A stretch of DNA of 64,000 nt from contig BQJD01000013.1 in NCBI GenBank assembly GCA_021604525.1, positions 11,055 to 75,054 of the forward strand, given 5' to 3'. Source of the DNA: a marine bacterium B5-7. GTDB taxonomy: Bacteria; Pseudomonadota; Gammaproteobacteria; Arenicellales; CAJQKF01. The position numbers and the translations under genes are program-made. The notes under the pieces were generated by a model, which saw only the letters and a list, made by a program, of their open reading frames with translations, ran no database searches and had not been told where the DNA came from. This document shows, piece after piece, positions 1-8,650 of the stretch; positions within the stretch are counted from its first letter, which is position 1; every line of letters starts with the position of its first letter.

Positions 1-561
1 CCATTTAATTTTGACGTGTCCGTGAATAAAAATATCAAGAGCGGCAAATATAACGACGATGAAACCTATGCTGCTGCTCGTCAGGGTGCCGATGCCGACT
101 GGACTCTGTTGCGTTTTAGCATGGATACCATACGCCAATTTGAAAAGCTGACCTTGCGCGGTTATCTGTCTGGACAATATGCAGACGAACCATTGATTGC
201 CGGCGAACAATTCGGTATCGGCGGCGCCAACAGCGTACGTGGATTCAGTGAACGGGAACTCACAGGGGATCGGGGTATTCGCGCCAGTATTGAAGTCGTA
301 TCGCCGAAGTTCGGAAAAGGTTTTGACGTCGGCTGGTTTGTCGACGGCGGTACGGTCGAACGTGTCCAACCGGCTGCTGGAGAATCCGCCAGTGTCGATA
401 TAGTCAGTACAGGAATGCTGCTCAACTGGCAGCCGAATCGACAATGGTTATTACATACGGACTTCGCCTACGTACTGGATATATCCGGTGACGCACCCGT
501 TGGCGGAACACAAGAAGGCGATGAGAGGGTCCATTTCAATGTCACATATTTTAGCGACTAG
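1..561 (+). CDS. TpsB (ShlB/FhaC/HecB family) outer-membrane translocator, 3' part; 5' end lies before the window
   Basis: EQFGIGGANSVRGF matches the Omp85/TpsB loop-6 VRGY/F motif; alternating beta-strand pattern; ends VHFNVTYFSD; precedes a TpsA. Confidence 0.9.
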   Translation, partial: PFNFDVSVNKNIKSGKYNDDETYAAARQGADADWTLLRFSMDTIRQFEKLTLRGYLSGQYADEPLIAGEQFGIGGANSVRGFSERELTGDRGIRASIEVVSPKFGKGFDVGWFVDGGTVERVQPAAGESASVDIVSTGMLLNWQPNRQWLLHTDFAYVLDISGDAPVGGTQEGDERVHFNVTYFSD

Positions 562-562
562 C

Positions 563-1369
563 ATGAATCGTTCAGACACCTCGTTAACAAGGCCTGTCTC
601 TAATGGCTTGATCACTACACTGTGCTGTCTTTTATTGTTGTCCTGGCTCGAGGTCGCCAATGCTTCGGTGCAGATAGGCAGTGTGGTATTCGCCAAGGGA
701 GCTGTATCGGCGCGTAGTACGGAAGGCACGGTTCGCCTTCTGGCCAGGGAAAGCTCTATTTTTGAAAACGATACCATTGCTACAGCCGATAATAGTTTTG
801 CGGTGGTTCGCTTTGCTGATGAGACAAAGATGTCCATTCGACCCAATAGTGAAATCATGATCGAACATTTCAACGAGAAGGTTGGAGAGGAACAAGCAGA
901 ATTCAATCTCCTTAAAGGTGGGCTACGAGCGATTACCGGCGCTATCGGCAAGCGTAATCCTGAAAGCGTTCGCTTTAAAACACGCAAGGCATCTATTGGT
1001 ATTCGCGGCACCGATCTCGCCATTCGGGATTGCGAGGGTACGGAGTGTCAGGAGGAAGAGGAGAGCATGACTGGCTTTGATCCGGTAAAGACCAATTGTG
1101 CCTCATCAGTTGAAGGTCAGCCACCCGGGCTTTACTTTGTATTTACTAAGGGCGCAGGTTACGCCGAAAAAGACGGCAAGAGAGTTGAGTTAGTGGCGAT
1201 TGGTGCGGGCTATGCCAGTAATACGGAGATGTCCTGCTTGAGTCAGGCGCCACGCTTTATTCTCAATGACGAATACCTTGAGAAGATAAACGTCGATTGG
1301 CAGGAGGCCGAGTTTTTCGAGATGCTGGGAATCGACGACGACCAGTTTCCAGCATGCGAGATACTGTAG
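563..1369 (+). CDS. Exported FecR-domain protein
   Basis: ATG at 563, 1 nt after the tpsB stop; hydrophobic signal segment ending ANA; FecR-type motifs DTIATADNSFAVVRFADET, LLKGGLRAITG, ASIGIRGT; Cys-containing C-terminal tail. Confidence 0.85.
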   Translation: MNRSDTSLTRPVSNGLITTLCCLLLLSWLEVANASVQIGSVVFAKGAVSARSTEGTVRLLARESSIFENDTIATADNSFAVVRFADETKMSIRPNSEIMIEHFNEKVGEEQAEFNLLKGGLRAITGAIGKRNPESVRFKTRKASIGIRGTDLAIRDCEGTECQEEEESMTGFDPVKTNCASSVEGQPPGLYFVFTKGAGYAEKDGKRVELVAIGAGYASNTEMSCLSQAPRFILNDEYLEKINVDWQEAEFFEMLGIDDDQFPACEIL

Positions 1370-1466: not shown

Positions 1467-4400
1467 ATGAACAGCAGCCACATAACTTCTCAATCGATGC
1501 ACGATGAACCGAATCGATTCCCCATCAAGTCGATTCTCGCACTGGCCGTGTCGAGTATTATTGCAACACCCGCGGGAGCCAATCCGACGGGGGCGAGCAT
1601 CGCCAATGGTTCGGTTTCGATGTCAGGCAGTGGCCGCGAGCTCAATATAACCAATAGCCCCGGCGCGATCATTAATTGGGACAGCTTCTCGATATCACGC
1701 GACGAGATAACGCGATTCATTCAGCAACACGATGCTTCGGCTGTACTTAACCGTGTCAGCGGCGGCATGCCATCGGAGATACTTGGCAGCCTGTTATCCA
1801 ATGGCCGTGTATTTCTCATTAATCAAAATGGAATCGTATTCGGCGATCATGCCATTGTCGATACTGCCGGATTGGTGGCCTCTTCTCTCAACATGACCGA
1901 TGCCGATTTTCTCGCGGGTAATCTTCGCTTCGCCGATGGTGAAGGCACGGTTGAGAATCGTGGTTATATCCGTGTTCGCGGTGGCGGCAATATCATGTTG
2001 ATTGCGCCTAACGTAACCAATTCCGGCATTATTCGTGCTGACGATGGAAGTGTGTTATTAGCCGCCGGTCGCGACATTGTTATAGAAAGCCTCGACTTCG
2101 AACATATCCGTTTCAGGATTCAGGCGCCTGAAGATACGGTGCTGAACCTTGGCCGGATTATTACCACCAACGGCATTGCCGCATTGTTCGCGGGGACCCT
2201 CAGTCATCAGGGTGTAATCCAGGCGCGTAGTGTTAGTCGCGATGCCGCAGGCAGGGTTCATCTTGAGGCGTCATCGAGCGTATCAGTCAGTGGCGAGATC
2301 GATGTGAGTGGTCATCAAATCGGTGGCGATGTGGCAATTACCGGTCGCGATGTGGTGCTTGAAGCAGCGCGTATCGATGCATCCGGTGATCAAGGAGGTG
2401 GCCGTGTTCGAATCGGTGGTGACTACCAGGGCAAGGGCGATCTGGCCCGATCGGATCGTACCCGGCTCGACGCCGCAACGCGGATCAATGCCGATGCTCG
2501 TGTTGCCGGAGATGGCGGTGAAGTCATCGTCTGGTCTGACGGCGATACTGACACTCGCGCGTTATTGACTGCACGCGGCGGTGCTACAGGGGGTGACGGC
2601 GGTCTGGTCGAAACCTCTGGCAAAGGAACGTTGGCATTTGGTCAGCCGGCTGATGTCAGTGCACCGGCCGGTGCTGGTGGAACCTGGTTGCTGGATCCTG
2701 AAGACATCACCATCGGCGATGCTGAAGCAGAGTCCATCAGCACAGCCTTGAACACGGGCAGTAATGTCGCGGTCAAGACCAGTGACGATGGCGATGGTGA
2801 AGGCAACATTGCTGTTAACTCGGCTATTGCCAAGACTGAGGGTGAAGATGCAGCCCTGTCCATGGATGCGCATAATCGTATTGACGTCAACGCGCCGATT
2901 ACCTCGACCTCCGGCAAACTCGATGTCAGCCTGAAAGCAGGCGGTGCCGTTCATGTTAATGCCGGTATCGATACTAACGGAGGCAACTTTTCCCAGGTTA
3001 TCACCCAGCTTGCACTTGAGATTAACGAAGATAATCAACCGTCTGACGAAACTGATTCAAGCGATGTTGGTGATCTGCCGGACAGTAGTCAGGCGCAAGA
3101 TCCTGCTGTTGAGACAGTTGTTGATACGAGTGTCCAAGTCGATTCGGATACTACAGAATCAGATGCTGTTCCTGTCGATGAAATTGTTGAAGCCGTTGAC
3201 CCTGTAGTCCCGGAAGTTACTGAACCCACCCAGGAAGTGCTTGCCGCTGGACTGGATGCATTCAAGCAGGACCTTGAGATTCTTGTAGACGCCGAGATTA
3301 AAACAGGCGGTGGCGACATTACCGTCGATGCCGGATCGAGTGGAACGGCCGGTGTGTTCGAGAACCTCGATGCCTCCAATGAAAATGGCGTTGGCGGAAC
3401 CGTACATATTCTGGGCGAGAATGTCGGCGTGTTCGAAGATGCACGCGTGGATGCGTCCGGGCGTGACGGTGGCGGCGAGATATTGATCGGTGGCGATCAA
3501 ACCGGCTCAAACCCGGATATACCCAATTCACGCGGCGTGATCATCGCGCCCAATGCCGAAATCGTCTCAGATGCCACCGGCAACGGCGATGGCGGCAAGG
3601 TCATTGTCTACGCCGATCACACTGCCAGTATTCTCGGACGGATTTCCGCCCGGGGCGGTATTGAAGGCGGCAACGGTGGATTTGTCGAGACATCCGGAAA
3701 AGTAAATCTGAACGTCACGCAAGCGCCGGACATTAGTGCGCCACAAGGTCAGGGTGGAACATGGCTGATCGATCCGTACGATCTGACCATTAATAATGGT
3801 GGTCCGAGTGCAAATTACGACTACACGGAAGCATACGGCGGAAATTACACCTTTATCGGTAATGCCACAGGTGCGGTGCTCGATGTTGCCACGTTGTATA
3901 AAGGGCTCGCCTATGGCGGCACTGTCATCCTCTATGCCAACGGCGTTCCGGGGGGTGAAGACGGTGATATTAACTGGGAAGCCGACCTCGATTTTTTCTA
4001 TGTGTACAATTCTTACGGTCAGGCGAATACGCCAAATCTGTATCTGTATGCAGACAACGACATAAACTTCAGCGGCGCGATTAATCGTTATGGGGGTACT
4101 ACCGCTGGCATCACCAATCTGAAATTCATCGCCGACGATGATCTTAATGGCAGTGGTGGTATCAACATCTTGGGCGGTGCTGTGGGGGAGGATACTCGCA
4201 TCCAGATTGATGGCGATTTTATTGCACGCGGTGCCTTCTTCGATATGGACGGAGGTGCGTATGAATCTCAGGATACATCGATTGTCGCTGGTGGTGATGT
4301 TGATATCCAGGTTTCTGGCGCTGTTTCGATTACTGGGGGATCTGAAAAATATACGGGCGCCCTGATTGAATCTCGTGGTGACATGACCATCACAGGCGCC

Positions 4401-7400
4401 TCTGTCAGTGTTCTCGGTGGTTCCGGGGAATCCGCCGATGCATCACTGAGAATGAATTCAGACAATGCAGTTGCAACACAGACCATCACCGCAACAGCCG
4501 GTGATATACATGTCGAAGGTGGTTCTTACACGGGCGGTTATGGGGGTAGGGCTGAGATCAGTGCACAACATAGCGGCAGCGCCACTATGGAAAAACTATA
4601 CCAGACACTGATTGCATCCAACAATGTTACGGTGAAGGGTGGCAGCGGTTATAACGCCCAGGCTAGCGTACGTCTGAATTCTTATAATGAAAACCAGGTC
4701 GCAACCCAGAGCGTGACTGCAACCGGCGGAGCCCTCACGGTCGATGGTGGAACAGGATATGGATATTCAGGGTACGGATATGGTAGTTATTCCACGGCCG
4801 AGATATATGCCTATCACCAGGCATTTGCATATTTCGGTTCAGCAAATCTCTCGTTTAACCAGTCGCTGACTGGCGCATCGGTCAATATTCTTGGTGGCAG
4901 TGATAATTACGCCTCTGCTCGGGTGTGGATGTATTCAACAGATAACTTCGCTAATTCGCGAGTTACTACGGGTACACAGAGTGTTACCGCAACCGCAGGC
5001 GACATTACGGTTCAAGGTGGCTCTGCCAGTAACACATATGCAGAAGTCTATGCTGACCAGTTGGATGGCACCATAGCTTCCTCACTGAATCAGACGTTAT
5101 TGGCATCGTCAAACGTCAACGTGACAGGCGGTTCGGGTGATGATGCGTCTGCGACTGTAAGTATCGGTAGATCTAATGATTCGGTATCTGTTGATCAAGT
5201 CACCCAGAGCGTTACGGCCACTGGCGGCGCGATTACTATCGAGGGTGGCTCGGGTTACGACAGTTATGCTGAGGTCAGTGTCAATCATGGAGGGTACGGT
5301 AACCCATCAACCAATCAAACCTTGAGCGCAACAGCCATCAATGTACTGGGTGGTTCCGAGAGGTCAGCGTCTGCCCGTGTGGTAATGGATTCGAATTCCT
5401 ACACGGCAACTCAAAGTATTACCGCGACTTCGGGCGATATCACCGTCACAGGTGGGTCGTATGATTCTGGTTCACCGTATAACGGCTCTTATGCAGAGAT
5501 CTTTGCCAGTCATAAATATGGTTCAAGTACTGGATCCACCTTCTATCAGACACTCGGGGCCTCGGCAAATATCGTTGTCACAGGTGGTGTCGGTGATCAT
5601 GGATGGGCTAGTGTTGCGATGCAGGGCAGCGGGGGAGGAACCACAACCCAGGGTGTGACCGCTACCGCAGGCAACATTACCGTCGAGGGGGGTTCGGGTT
5701 ACGCTGCTTTTGGTCAAATATTTGCAGAGAGTAAGTATGCGTCCAATTATGCAGAGAATGCATTGAATCAGACATTGTCAGCCAGGGGCGTCAACGTCAT
5801 TGGCGGTTCCAATACCTACGCCTCTGCCGGCGTGCGGATGACCGCTGATGATTCATCCAGAGGTTATTACGGACCGTCATATGCTACCCAGAGCGTGACC
5901 GCCACAGCGGGTAACATTCGCATCGAAGGTGGCTCAGCAGCACATGCCAATGCAGATATCGGCGCCAATCAACGACGATCCGGATACGCTTATGCCTATG
6001 GATACGGTACCTATACCTATAATACATACCTGGCACAGACACTCGATGCATCTGGAGACATCGTACTTCAGGCAGGCTCGTCCGCAGATGCATCAGCGCG
6101 CGTTAACCTGAACCAATATGTCACCATGAGGCATACGGATTCGCCTGGTTATGATTCAACTTTTATCGTGAATGCGAACGCTACGCAGATGTTGAACGCC
6201 AGCGGCAACATCAACGTACTGGGCAGTAATACCGCTGCTGTGGGTGCACAGGTTGAATTCACCCAGACTATCGAAAGGGATGGTTTTACAAACAACGCGG
6301 GAACTGAGTGGCAGTCCAACTTTCTCGGCGGGCAATATGTACAGGCGGGTGGAAACGTAAACGTTACATCAGGCACCAATTCCGGTGGCTATGCCGGTAT
6401 CGATCCGCAGGTGACACTCGAGACGATCTATCCTGATAGCGCACCGTTTCTGCCGCAACAATCGGTTACAGTTGGCACCAAACAGGAAATTCGTGCGGGT
6501 TACGATACTGCCGTACCGGGTGCAATAAATGTGACTGCCAACGGCGGCAATGCATTCATTACCACGGGTTCGACGTATCGATCAGTACTCAATAAATATG
6601 GCACTAACTATTTGACAACAGGTTACGGCAATGACCAATTGATTGAAGCGGATACGCTTAATGTGTTGTCCGAAACTGCGTCCGGGGCGATTGCTGAAAT
6701 CGTGCTCAATGATGGTGCTTATTACAACAGCACGTTTTATACGCCGACCGCCTATCAGGACATCGATGTATTCGGTTCAGCCGCTGTTCGTTCTGCCAAT
6801 GGCGGTATTGCACGCATTCTAAATTACGGCCTGACCGGTTCCATTGATATTGCAGGCAATCTTGCGCTTCACGAGGCGGATGAAACCAGTCAAACCGTGA
6901 TTCAGTTAAGCAACCAGGATGAACCAGGTTCGACCGGTGCATTGAATGTGCTGGGCGCAGTCGATTTCCTGGGTTCGCCGCAAATTATCAGTAACGATAC
7001 GGTGACATTTACCAGTATCACCGGTTCGGGGACGGTGGGTGCTTCCGATATTGCAATCTCCGGAGAACTCGCACCCGGTAACTCACCGGGCGTACTGTTT
7101 TTCCCCGGTAACCTGACATTACTCCCCGGCTCCAATTCCACGTTTGAGATTGGCGGTACACCGGTAAGTGGTTTGTTTGACCGGGTTAACGTAGCCGGGA
7201 CGGCCACACTGGACGGTAACATGGTTGTCGTCTTGATCAATGGGTATACGCCGGACGGGATGCTGCAATACGACCTGATCAGCGCGAACAATCTCACCGG
7301 TGGATTCACTACATTTTCTGGACCGGGATTTGGAGAAGGTCAAGCCCCGCCGACCACTTACTTCGTCACCTCGACGGGTGTGCCGCCAACACAGCCACCT

Positions 7401-7655
7401 GGCTCAACGCCAACAATTCCCGATGGTTTTCTTCCCGGAATTCCGACGATACCGGCGATTTCGAATGGACCACAACCAACAACACCTGGAATTCCTGTGA
7501 TACCTGGTGCCAATCCCGTTATTCCGGAGGATACTTTTTCAACACCATTAATCAGCGAGATTCTGACGTTGCTTGATATTCCTTTTACGGAAACGCCGGA
7601 AGATCGGCTTGAGGAGAAACTGAAAACGATTGGCCTTTGTACCGCCAGTAATTAG
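1467..7655 (+). CDS. TpsA filamentous-haemagglutinin-like exoprotein/adhesin (~2,060 aa)
   Basis: GAGGTG RBS before ATG 1467; signal peptide ending AGA-NPTG; TPS domain motifs IINWDSFSI, VLNRVSGG, GRVFLINQNG; long Gly-rich beta-helix repeats. Confidence 0.92.
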   Translation: MNSSHITSQSMHDEPNRFPIKSILALAVSSIIATPAGANPTGASIANGSVSMSGSGRELNITNSPGAIINWDSFSISRDEITRFIQQHDASAVLNRVSGGMPSEILGSLLSNGRVFLINQNGIVFGDHAIVDTAGLVASSLNMTDADFLAGNLRFADGEGTVENRGYIRVRGGGNIMLIAPNVTNSGIIRADDGSVLLAAGRDIVIESLDFEHIRFRIQAPEDTVLNLGRIITTNGIAALFAGTLSHQGVIQARSVSRDAAGRVHLEASSSVSVSGEIDVSGHQIGGDVAITGRDVVLEAARIDASGDQGGGRVRIGGDYQGKGDLARSDRTRLDAATRINADARVAGDGGEVIVWSDGDTDTRALLTARGGATGGDGGLVETSGKGTLAFGQPADVSAPAGAGGTWLLDPEDITIGDAEAESISTALNTGSNVAVKTSDDGDGEGNIAVNSAIAKTEGEDAALSMDAHNRIDVNAPITSTSGKLDVSLKAGGAVHVNAGIDTNGGNFSQVITQLALEINEDNQPSDETDSSDVGDLPDSSQAQDPAVETVVDTSVQVDSDTTESDAVPVDEIVEAVDPVVPEVTEPTQEVLAAGLDAFKQDLEILVDAEIKTGGGDITVDAGSSGTAGVFENLDASNENGVGGTVHILGENVGVFEDARVDASGRDGGGEILIGGDQTGSNPDIPNSRGVIIAPNAEIVSDATGNGDGGKVIVYADHTASILGRISARGGIEGGNGGFVETSGKVNLNVTQAPDISAPQGQGGTWLIDPYDLTINNGGPSANYDYTEAYGGNYTFIGNATGAVLDVATLYKGLAYGGTVILYANGVPGGEDGDINWEADLDFFYVYNSYGQANTPNLYLYADNDINFSGAINRYGGTTAGITNLKFIADDDLNGSGGINILGGAVGEDTRIQIDGDFIARGAFFDMDGGAYESQDTSIVAGGDVDIQVSGAVSITGGSEKYTGALIESRGDMTITGASVSVLGGSGESADASLRMNSDNAVATQTITATAGDIHVEGGSYTGGYGGRAEISAQHSGSATMEKLYQTLIASNNVTVKGGSGYNAQASVRLNSYNENQVATQSVTATGGALTVDGGTGYGYSGYGYGSYSTAEIYAYHQAFAYFGSANLSFNQSLTGASVNILGGSDNYASARVWMYSTDNFANSRVTTGTQSVTATAGDITVQGGSASNTYAEVYADQLDGTIASSLNQTLLASSNVNVTGGSGDDASATVSIGRSNDSVSVDQVTQSVTATGGAITIEGGSGYDSYAEVSVNHGGYGNPSTNQTLSATAINVLGGSERSASARVVMDSNSYTATQSITATSGDITVTGGSYDSGSPYNGSYAEIFASHKYGSSTGSTFYQTLGASANIVVTGGVGDHGWASVAMQGSGGGTTTQGVTATAGNITVEGGSGYAAFGQIFAESKYASNYAENALNQTLSARGVNVIGGSNTYASAGVRMTADDSSRGYYGPSYATQSVTATAGNIRIEGGSAAHANADIGANQRRSGYAYAYGYGTYTYNTYLAQTLDASGDIVLQAGSSADASARVNLNQYVTMRHTDSPGYDSTFIVNANATQMLNASGNINVLGSNTAAVGAQVEFTQTIERDGFTNNAGTEWQSNFLGGQYVQAGGNVNVTSGTNSGGYAGIDPQVTLETIYPDSAPFLPQQSVTVGTKQEIRAGYDTAVPGAINVTANGGNAFITTGSTYRSVLNKYGTNYLTTGYGNDQLIEADTLNVLSETASGAIAEIVLNDGAYYNSTFYTPTAYQDIDVFGSAAVRSANGGIARILNYGLTGSIDIAGNLALHEADETSQTVIQLSNQDEPGSTGALNVLGAVDFLGSPQIISNDTVTFTSITGSGTVGASDIAISGELAPGNSPGVLFFPGNLTLLPGSNSTFEIGGTPVSGLFDRVNVAGTATLDGNMVVVLINGYTPDGMLQYDLISANNLTGGFTTFSGPGFGEGQAPPTTYFVTSTGVPPTQPPGSTPTIPDGFLPGIPTIPAISNGPQPTTPGIPVIPGANPVIPEDTFSTPLISEILTLLDIPFTETPEDRLEEKLKTIGLCTASN
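4476..6230 (+). repeat. Seven degenerate ~70-90 aa tandem repeats within TpsA
   Basis: TQ(S/T/G)(V/I)TAT(A/G/S)G(D/A/N)(I/L)xxxGG(S/T) recurs near 4476, 4704, 4974, 5202, 5409, 5646 and 5886, alternating with a degenerate Q(T/S)Lx(A/G)...GG half-repeat. Confidence 0.85.
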
Positions 7656-7801: not shown

Positions 7802-8650
7802 ATGACCCGCCTTAAGCGGGTCGCGTTTTTTAAGGATCATGCAAGTACCGTGCTCGCCTTCGTACACATTCAAAAAACCGCCGGCCAGACTTTGCGGGCA
7901 TTATTACGCCGTCATTTCGGCACCCGTCATTGTGATGTATATCGCTCCTACGATGCCATTCAAATGGATGAGGAGGTATGGCGCTGGATCAGACGATGCT
8001 ATCCGAAACTCGAAAGCATCGGCGGCCATTCGGTCGCACCACGCGATAGTTTCCTCGATATTGACGGTATTCGATTTTTTACATTCTTAAGGGACCCGAA
8101 ACGGCGTACGCTTTCTCACTATCAATATCTGGTGAGTCGCGGCACGGTCACGGAGCCATTCAATCAATGGGCCGAAGCGAATATAAATCGACAAACACGT
8201 GCCCTGGCGGGTGCGGATCATGTTGAGCAGGCAATCGAGGTGCTGGAAACCCGTATTGGTTTTACCGGCCTGATGGAGTCGTTCGACGAATCATTGTTAC
8301 TTTGGAAGAATTGGCTTCAAATAACCGATTTCGATATCCGGTATCAATCGGTTAATGTTGCGTCATCAAACGATATACGTGAAGCGGTGTTGGAGAATTC
8401 GAGGTCCGTGGAAATTCTCGATGAGATGAATCGTAACGACCAGGTGCTATACGAGTATGTTGTGGAGAATATTTATCCGCGCCAAATCAAGGCCTATGAT
8501 TCTGATATTTCCGATGACCTGGCAGCATTCAGGAAATCATTCGCAAGTGCCAGCAATCAATCTTTAAAACAACTGACCGGACAGCTTAAGCGGAACCTGG
8601 TCTTCAGGCCGGGATTCAAGAAGATTCTGCGCAATCAAAAAAAGCGTTGA
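7802..8650 (+). CDS. PAPS-dependent sulfotransferase (Sulfotransfer_2-like)
   Basis: FVHIQKTAGQT (5'-PSB loop), FTFLRDPxxRxLSHY (3'-PB motif), late NRNDxxLY motif; no signal peptide. Confidence 0.85.
   Translation: MTRLKRVAFFKDHASTVLAFVHIQKTAGQTLRALLRRHFGTRHCDVYRSYDAIQMDEEVWRWIRRCYPKLESIGGHSVAPRDSFLDIDGIRFFTFLRDPKRRTLSHYQYLVSRGTVTEPFNQWAEANINRQTRALAGADHVEQAIEVLETRIGFTGLMESFDESLLLWKNWLQITDFDIRYQSVNVASSNDIREAVLENSRSVEILDEMNRNDQVLYEYVVENIYPRQIKAYDSDISDDLAAFRKSFASASNQSLKQLTGQLKRNLVFRPGFKKILRNQKKR

Follow-up and report, generated by a model that had tools for sequence, protein, structure and literature searches.

What holds a two-partner secretion (TPS) exoprotein at the cell surface when its chain carries one cysteine only, and that one at its very end? 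The question is raised by a locus of the marine bacterium B5-7 (GenBank assembly GCA_021604525.1, contig BQJD01000013.1), situated at the left end of the 64,000-nucleotide stretch analysed here (G000:C13:11055-75054), hereafter called the window. This locus is a three-gene operon on the + strand, composed of the 3' end of tpsB (transporter), a fecR-like gene and tpsA (exoprotein). Two-partner secretion is commonly described as consisting of two proteins and, to our knowledge, the retention or release of most TpsA fibres is known for only few pathogens. In this operon, TpsA and the FecR-type protein both have one cysteine, apparently unpaired, within about 6 residues of the C-terminus. From these sequences, we give about even chances to the proposal that a periplasmic disulfide between the two proteins turns the FecR-type protein into a plug supplied in trans, which would retain TpsA at the surface. 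The features on which the argument is built are the following.

1..561, + strand: 3' end of tpsB; the whole gene (G000:C13 9996-11615, L003) encodes an Omp85-type transporter of 539 amino acids with POTRA.
563..1369, + strand: fecR-like gene, encoding a secreted FecR-domain protein of 268 amino acids (100% identical to the database gene call P0155).
665..955, + strand: first domain of the FecR-type protein (P0155 residues 35-131), modelled as a beta-sandwich with the MpIBP/LapA periplasmic retention (plug) fold.
1280..1366, + strand: C-terminal tail of the FecR-type protein, flexible and ending ...FPACEIL (P0155 residues 240-268), with a predicted local distance difference test score (pLDDT) of about 30.
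1355..1357, + strand: codon of C265 (P0155 numbering; C290 when read from GTG 488), the end cysteine of the FecR-type protein, its fifth and presumably unpaired one.
1467..7655 (stop included), + strand: tpsA, encoding an exoprotein of 2062 amino acids (identical to database P0004, with the same start).
7314..7652, + strand: last ~113 residues of TpsA, predicted to be unstructured, in which a Pro-rich linker and an acidic stretch precede the end motif.
7629..7646, + strand: TpsA end motif IGLCTAS, with the sole cysteine codon at 7638-7640.

Both partners of a type Vb system are encoded in this locus. TpsA has an N-terminal TPS domain (PF05860, E 1.1e-25, 91.5 bits for a cut-off of 33.5), which spans residues 65-335 of the longer GTG-1383 frame (nt 1575-2387), and is also matched by TIGR01901 (E 8.7e-19). 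Its cognate Omp85-type TpsB, which has ShlB (PF03865, E 3.4e-21) and POTRA_2 (PF08479, E 2e-12) domains according to Pfam, is encoded on the same strand by a gene that ends at 561, two genes upstream of tpsA. Between them, the fecR-like gene (with alternative starts at 488 (GTG), 521 and 539) overlaps the end of tpsB with its start, and its stop lies 97 nt ahead of the tpsA ATG. The product belongs to the Pfam FecR family, residues 95-181 matching PF04773 above the gathering score (E 2.6e-11, 44.2 bits for a cut-off of 24).

The sequence-only reading had noticed a single TpsA cysteine at codon 7638-7640 and five cysteines, an odd number, in the mature FecR-type protein, the last one in ...FPACEIL; both counts are borne out by the open reading frames (ORFs) and by signal-peptide prediction. 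Read from ATG 1467, TpsA contains one cysteine in 2062 residues, residue 2058, four residues from the end of the C-terminus ...KLKTIGLCTASN; the GTG-1383 frame adds one more (residue 13), upstream of this ATG. In the GTG-488 frame, the FecR-type ORF has cysteines at positions 46, 47, 182, 187, 204, 250 and 290. Cysteines 46 and 47 fall in the core of the signal peptide (...LITTLCCLLLLSWLEVANA|SVQ, predicted cleavage site ...EVANA|SVQ), which leaves five in the mature protein, the last in ...DQFPACEIL, three residues from the end. We rejected a lipoprotein reading of the Cys-Cys pair in the signal peptide, since these residues are not conserved in the alignment; moreover, the preceding residues do not look like a lipobox. 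TpsB has cysteines only at residues 19 and 36, within the region of the signal peptide, and the mature protein is free of cysteine. A TpsA-TpsB disulfide is thus rejected, and the partner of the TpsA end cysteine can only be the FecR-type protein, a second TpsA or a product encoded elsewhere.

This arrangement differs from the known disulfide anchors of TPS exoproteins. In HMW1 and HxuA of Haemophilus influenzae, the C-terminus of TpsA stays in the periplasm, where a disulfide-dependent bulky element holds the exoprotein in the TpsB pore (PMC5422565). There, two cysteines of one chain close a small loop, whereas the whole mature TpsA studied here has one cysteine, and the proposed stopper is a separate folded protein. 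With one cysteine in the chain, any disulfide of TpsA must go to another molecule. The sequence-only reading had attributed a C-terminal disulfide anchor to FhaB/HMW1-type TpsAs as a whole; in the available part of the same review, this applies to HMW1, and also to HxuA, and not to FhaB. Its proposal of an intermolecular disulfide, either TpsA-FecR or TpsA-TpsA, gains support, still at the level of sequences, from conservation, parity and co-occurrence (below) as well as from the cysteine-free TpsB.

That proposal depended on the terminal cysteine being conserved in homologues, and in both families it is. Among seven genomes from the bacterial family of B5-7 (its own included), five match the last 311 residues of TpsA. 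In an alignment of 7 TpsAs, I2055, G2056 and C2058 are invariant; P0005, P0006, P0007, P0054, P0276, P0277 and P0278 keep IG[LM]C, with total cysteine counts from 1 to 7. All five family TpsA tails keep G-L-C-T-A-S behind a Pro-rich linker that varies in length and sequence. FecR-type orthologues are found in 7/7 of these genomes; four complete tails end in C-E-[ILV]-L and the fifth is cut by a contig end. When 22 short-form relatives of the FecR-type protein are aligned, four cysteines, including the end cysteine (22/22), are invariant and the fifth is nearly so. A separate observation concerns the TpsA orthologue of G003 (L028 8650-13556, G003:C54), which is split into two overlapping frames of 562 and 1120 amino acids. 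The split is a frameshift or an assembly error, and the tail of this orthologue still reads ...SIGLCTASTTT.

Beyond this family, 695 proteins matched the FecR-type query at E <= 1e-5. Among the best 120, 119 have a cysteine 1-5 residues from the C-terminus, the lone exception being a protein that stops soon after the FecR domain. For TpsA, the first 480 residues were used as query and 2966 proteins were found at E <= 1e-10 among the candidates scored; the best 120 include 91 with a cysteine in the last 6 residues and 104 with one in the last 20, the commonest place being the penultimate residue (63/120). We compared these counts with a chance expectation obtained by placing each protein's own cysteines at random: a cysteine in the last 6 residues would be expected in 1.5 TpsAs (91 observed) and 9.8 FecR-type proteins (119 observed), that is, enrichments of 60-fold and 12-fold, respectively. 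Parity was examined on the same sets. The number of cysteines after residue 40 is odd (3, 5 or 7) in 117/120 FecR-type proteins, with C-x3-C plus the end cysteine as the minimal set, and the number after residue 60 is odd in 90 of the 104 TpsAs with an end cysteine, 36 of which have exactly one. Such parity agrees with one spare thiol per chain.

These figures bear on the idea that the end cysteine is a functionless quirk of the lineage, which we find hardly credible. Only the relatedness of the sampled genomes speaks for it. It conflicts with the conservation of the end cysteine in both families and with the odd parity, and it has to face the enrichment over random placement, the persistence of the cysteine while the surrounding tail diverges completely, and the spread of the relatives, judged by source names, over several orders of Proteobacteria.

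A second idea is that the end cysteines are not disulfide partners at all; they could form a shared site of recognition or modification (lipid or other adduct, metal ligand, redox sensor) or a signal for TpsB or a protease. The layout of the tails fits it: in both proteins, a charged, disordered linker leads up to a cysteine that lies 1-5 residues from the end, as is often the case for sorting or modification signals. Beyond this linker and the cysteine, the two tails have no clear common motif, which weakens the shared C-terminal sorting signal that the sequence-only reading had offered as another branch. A helix motif seemingly shared by both tails among near relatives (ELF..LG vs LTLLD) was tried and failed across 14 locus pairs. 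The residues round the cysteine differ between the two proteins and between lineages, no conserved candidate for a modifying enzyme was seen in the loci read, and a free thiol is unlikely to persist in an oxidising periplasm with DsbA; six DsbA-family matches are present in the genome. On balance, we regard this second idea as quite unlikely.

The two end cysteines also occur together. The FecR-type profile matched in 100 of 400 genomes sampled from the class, and we read up to 20 kb round 20 of the best-scoring places, one per genome, skipping the ends of short contigs. Fifteen of the 20 FecR-type ORFs have a cysteine in the last 8 residues, and 13 of these 15 adjoin a large ORF that ends in a cysteine 1-4 residues before the stop. 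As for the other two, the TpsA neighbour runs off the contig in L072, and L076 has a FecR-type ORF with two end cysteines spaced C-x4-C and no TPS genes nearby. In the 5 loci whose FecR-type ORF lacks an end cysteine, no TPS or TpsB genes were found in the fetched stretch. For 8 loci, we could confirm directly that the neighbour has a TPS domain (L063, L064, L065, L066, L068, L069, L070 and L078; for L065, by identity with the tail of P0284), and a TPS match on the same strand just upstream supports this in 3 others (L074, L081 and L082), the remaining 2 of the 13 (L067 and L071) being cut by contig ends that leave this domain outside the readable part. The gene order is either tpsB-fecR-tpsA or tpsA-fecR-tpsB. 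The genome of B5-7 itself contains a second module of this kind (G000:C48:1-6559, L030), with tpsB, a fecR-like gene and tpsA: its FecR-type protein ends in ...LELRCE, and its TpsA (>1416 amino acids) is cut by the contig end, so that its tail is unreadable. These are the only two TPS-domain genes in the genome, and both lie beside a FecR-type gene with an end cysteine.

As a control, we took 20 TPS-domain genes from genomes without a match to the FecR profile. Eighteen of them reach a stop; 1/18 has a cysteine in the last 6 residues and 15/18 have none in the last 20. Two control TpsAs have a close pair of cysteines near the end, L094 (G384) with ...GACIGAQC... and L103 (G040) with ...IRCEAFGSVAATHPEC..., and their tails look, in sequence, like the classical intramolecular loop of the HMW1 type.

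The spare cysteines might also serve to form homodimers (TpsA-TpsA and FecR-FecR), for instance by pairing fibres at their base, in which case the two proteins would not be linked. One unpaired cysteine per chain suits a homodimer as well as a heterodimer, and one end-cysteine TpsA, in the control set, has no fecR gene nearby. Homodimers nevertheless leave unexplained why an end-cysteine FecR-type protein sits beside an end-cysteine TpsA in 13/15 loci and why the five without this cysteine have no TPS neighbour; they also require two TpsA tails to meet, each of them inside its own TpsB. We therefore hold this explanation to be very unlikely.

If the FecR-type protein is the partner, it should be able to act as a stopper, and its predicted structure is consistent with this. 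In the AlphaFold2 model (alignment of 22 sequences, mean pLDDT 79), residues 35-131 (pLDDT 81-97) and ~140-229 each form a beta domain, and a disordered tail follows (residues 240-268, pLDDT ~30). The first domain superposes on PDB 5IX9 with Z 11.0 and a root-mean-square deviation of 2.3 A over 75/76 residues (25% identity); Foldseek also ranks 5IX9 first (template modelling score 0.78, normalised by target), and the sequence profile of the protein matches 5ix9_A with E 7.9e-4. According to this model, the first domain has the RIN beta-sandwich fold, that is, the plug of MpIBP and LapA. On the other side, the last 311 residues of TpsA (alignment of 5 sequences, mean pLDDT 63) are modelled with beta structure at residues 10-198 (pLDDT ~70-93) and disorder at residues 199-311 (pLDDT ~35), apart from a short helix at 294-300. 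A complex prediction between the mature FecR-type protein (35-268) and TpsA 2003-2062, run without controls, scored 0.04 and 0.03 against a mark of 0.32, values that by the rule of the method speak neither way on binding.

In Marinomonas, the RIN domain of MpIBP (5IX9) is periplasmic, too large for the TolC pore, and prevents release of the adhesin (PMC5550230), and the retention module of LapA in Pseudomonas fluorescens works in the same manner (bioRxiv 10.1101/198937). The likeness to the first FecR-type domain lies in the fold (Z 11.0). The differences are that the plug of LapA and MpIBP is the adhesin's own N-terminus, lodged in a TolC-like channel, while here a separate 268-residue product is encoded in a TPS operon and would be joined to the C-terminus of TpsA by a disulfide, TpsB being the putative pore. 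The protein is thus not the N-terminus of a giant adhesin secreted by a type 1 system, as a LapA-type member would be. Long frames with a FecR-profile match were considered as possible TpsA-FecR fusions, and the two examined, G338:C18 (2128 amino acids) and G219:C12 (1212 amino acids), proved not to be TpsAs. As a side observation, the G338:C18 protein (L083 9813-16196) has its FecR-type domain at the N-terminus (residues 26-167) and ends in ...NCLGGGAGCI, a layout that recalls, by analogy, LapA-like adhesins with an N-terminal retention module.

Another point of comparison is CdrA of Pseudomonas aeruginosa, a TpsA adhesin that is kept at the surface or let go depending on its C-terminal tail in the periplasm (PMC5422565). 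Its release is due to LapG cleavage under the control of cyclic di-GMP. We know of no third, FecR-type component described for CdrA/CdrB. The features of a CdrA/LapG-type anchor are a di-alanine motif for LapG cleavage and a pair of cysteines in the C-terminal tail, and the last 120 residues of our TpsA contain no Ala-Ala and a single cysteine. The cysteine pair of CdrA reportedly forms a 'hook', a description attributed to Cooley and colleagues in 2016.

Several observations weigh against a disulfide-borne plug and have to be set beside those that favour it. Among the best 120 TpsA relatives, 16 have no cysteine in the last 20 residues (five of these, P0288, P0299, P0332, P0372 and P0374, are labelled 'partial' in the source). 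The exception in the control set, L113 (G033:C53:22826-27793, minus strand), is an orphan TpsA of 1656 amino acids that ends in ...VLTCR, with no fecR or tpsB gene within ~10 kb and no match to the FecR profile in the G033 genome (93% complete); an end cysteine may thus also work without a FecR partner. The sampled genomes being related, independent events are fewer than our counts suggest. The tails vary, and no residue pattern was seen to co-vary between the partners in the 14 locus pairs. Lastly, the match of the FecR-type protein to the LapA retention model NF033682 (retention_LapA, E 4.6e-6, 26.9 bits) falls below the curated cut-off of 50.

The FecR domain also suggests signalling in place of retention: the FecR-type protein would sense whether the fibre is secreted, loaded or pulled and pass this on to a periplasmic CHASE2 sensor enzyme, which would alter cyclic-nucleotide levels. 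The link to TpsA could then be covalent or not, and since such a role can coexist with tethering, it is the main alternative or addition to retention; on its own we judge it unlikely. FecR/PupR-type domains are periplasmic signal relays, and the fold match next to 5IX9 is the periplasmic domain of PupR (6ovm); its Z of 5.0 is within the range of common folds. In G001 (L004 1-1416), a gene for a CHASE2 domain (PF05226, E 8.5e-20) with an adenylate/guanylate cyclase (PF00211, E 2.9e-20) adjoins the TpsA orthologue, and an ORF with a nearly identical end does so in G002 (L006). B5-7, however, has its two CHASE2 genes elsewhere, on contigs C10 and C6, and the next gene after tpsA does not encode a sensor. 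Published work on a biofilm operon of Burkholderia describes periplasmic FecR-domain proteins encoded next to CHASE2 histidine kinases (PMC5192318). That operon resembles the present case by a secreted FecR-domain protein next to a CHASE2 sensor; it differs in that it has no TPS genes, our locus has no LysM domain such as that of its LysM-FecR protein, and the word 'cysteine' does not occur in the available part of PMC5192318.

A classical role as FecR/PupR anti-sigma regulator in cell-surface signalling does not fit the protein. It has in common with these regulators the Pfam FecR domain and the weak fold match to PupR. In the Pfam scan, no domain separates the signal peptide from the FecR domain, and an anti-sigma domain of the cytoplasmic type is absent. 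The neighbouring ORFs that were scanned on both sides encode TpsB, TpsA and unrelated enzymes, and there is no extracytoplasmic function sigma factor or TonB-dependent receptor among them.

To return to the proposed plug, the steps that we infer, from formation of the bond with its partner to retention and later release, could be put together as follows. The products of tpsB, the fecR-like gene and tpsA would form a three-part two-partner secretion module. TpsA would be exported by Sec and then threaded, N-terminus first, through TpsB, its flexible Pro-rich tail of ~113 residues remaining in the TpsB pore and the periplasm. The FecR-type protein, also exported to the periplasm, would contain two internal disulfides, with one cysteine left over on its flexible tail. 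Oxidation of the two spare cysteines in the periplasm would give the intermolecular TpsA-FecR disulfide and, the folded FecR-type protein being unable to pass the TpsB pore, TpsA would be tethered at the cell surface. If its folded domains are indeed too large for this pore, the fibre should remain on the cell, and only reduction of the bond or proteolysis of the tail would release it.

In its widest form, the proposal would describe a widespread three-component variant of type Vb secretion, with a separate plug of the LapA/MpIBP fold joined by a single disulfide to the end of the exoprotein, a tether releasable by redox change and, in many lineages, a coupling to CHASE2 cyclic-nucleotide enzymes that would signal from the outside in. 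We advance this wide form tentatively, as a possibility. In the literature, papers available by subscription only being outside the scope, we found neither a FecR-type protein described as third component of TPS nor any account of paired end cysteines, and the available part of a review on TPS (PMC5422565) does not contain the word FecR. The pattern is newly seen in a proteobacterial lineage, and what is newly added here is the family-wide counts with their chance expectation, the parity test, the control set, the cysteine-free TpsB and the fold match to LapA/MpIBP. If the proposal is true, the hundreds of TpsAs of environmental Proteobacteria with a matched end-cysteine FecR-type component beside them would have a general mechanism of retention, the periplasmic-plug logic that anchors type 1-secreted adhesins would be linked to type V secretion, and a role would be assigned to a large set of hypothetical proteins named 'FecR domain-containing'. 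A plug attached by a disulfide and removable by reduction would, in that case, also be usable for the reversible display of proteins on cell surfaces.

Some further characteristics of TpsA and of its surroundings may be mentioned. Just before the disordered tail (window 7000-7310, residues ~1845-1950), TpsA has a beta domain of ~100 amino acids with a GNSPG motif and without any Pfam or NCBIfam match. An exhaustive search with the last 311 amino acids gave 3337 relatives at E <= 1e-3, most of which cover only this domain (about residues 95-205 of the query), and a word-based search with the same query returned only TpsA itself and P0005. In many of the other proteins, the tails that follow this domain resemble PEP-CTERM sorting signals. 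In the centre of TpsA (window 4300-6100, residues ~950-1550), degenerate repeats of the type ...ATQSVTATAGDITVEGGS... follow one another, and the overall composition includes 1.07% Lys and 0.05% Cys. The gene after tpsA (7802-8650) has only a sub-threshold sulfotransferase match. On the other side of the module, a few genes upstream, the minus strand contains an ORF of 413 amino acids with a weak glycosyltransferase-like match (L003 7690-8931), and a trypsin-like peptidase of 543 amino acids (PF13365, E 1.7e-20) is encoded upstream of tpsB on the opposite strand (L003 6006-7637, minus).

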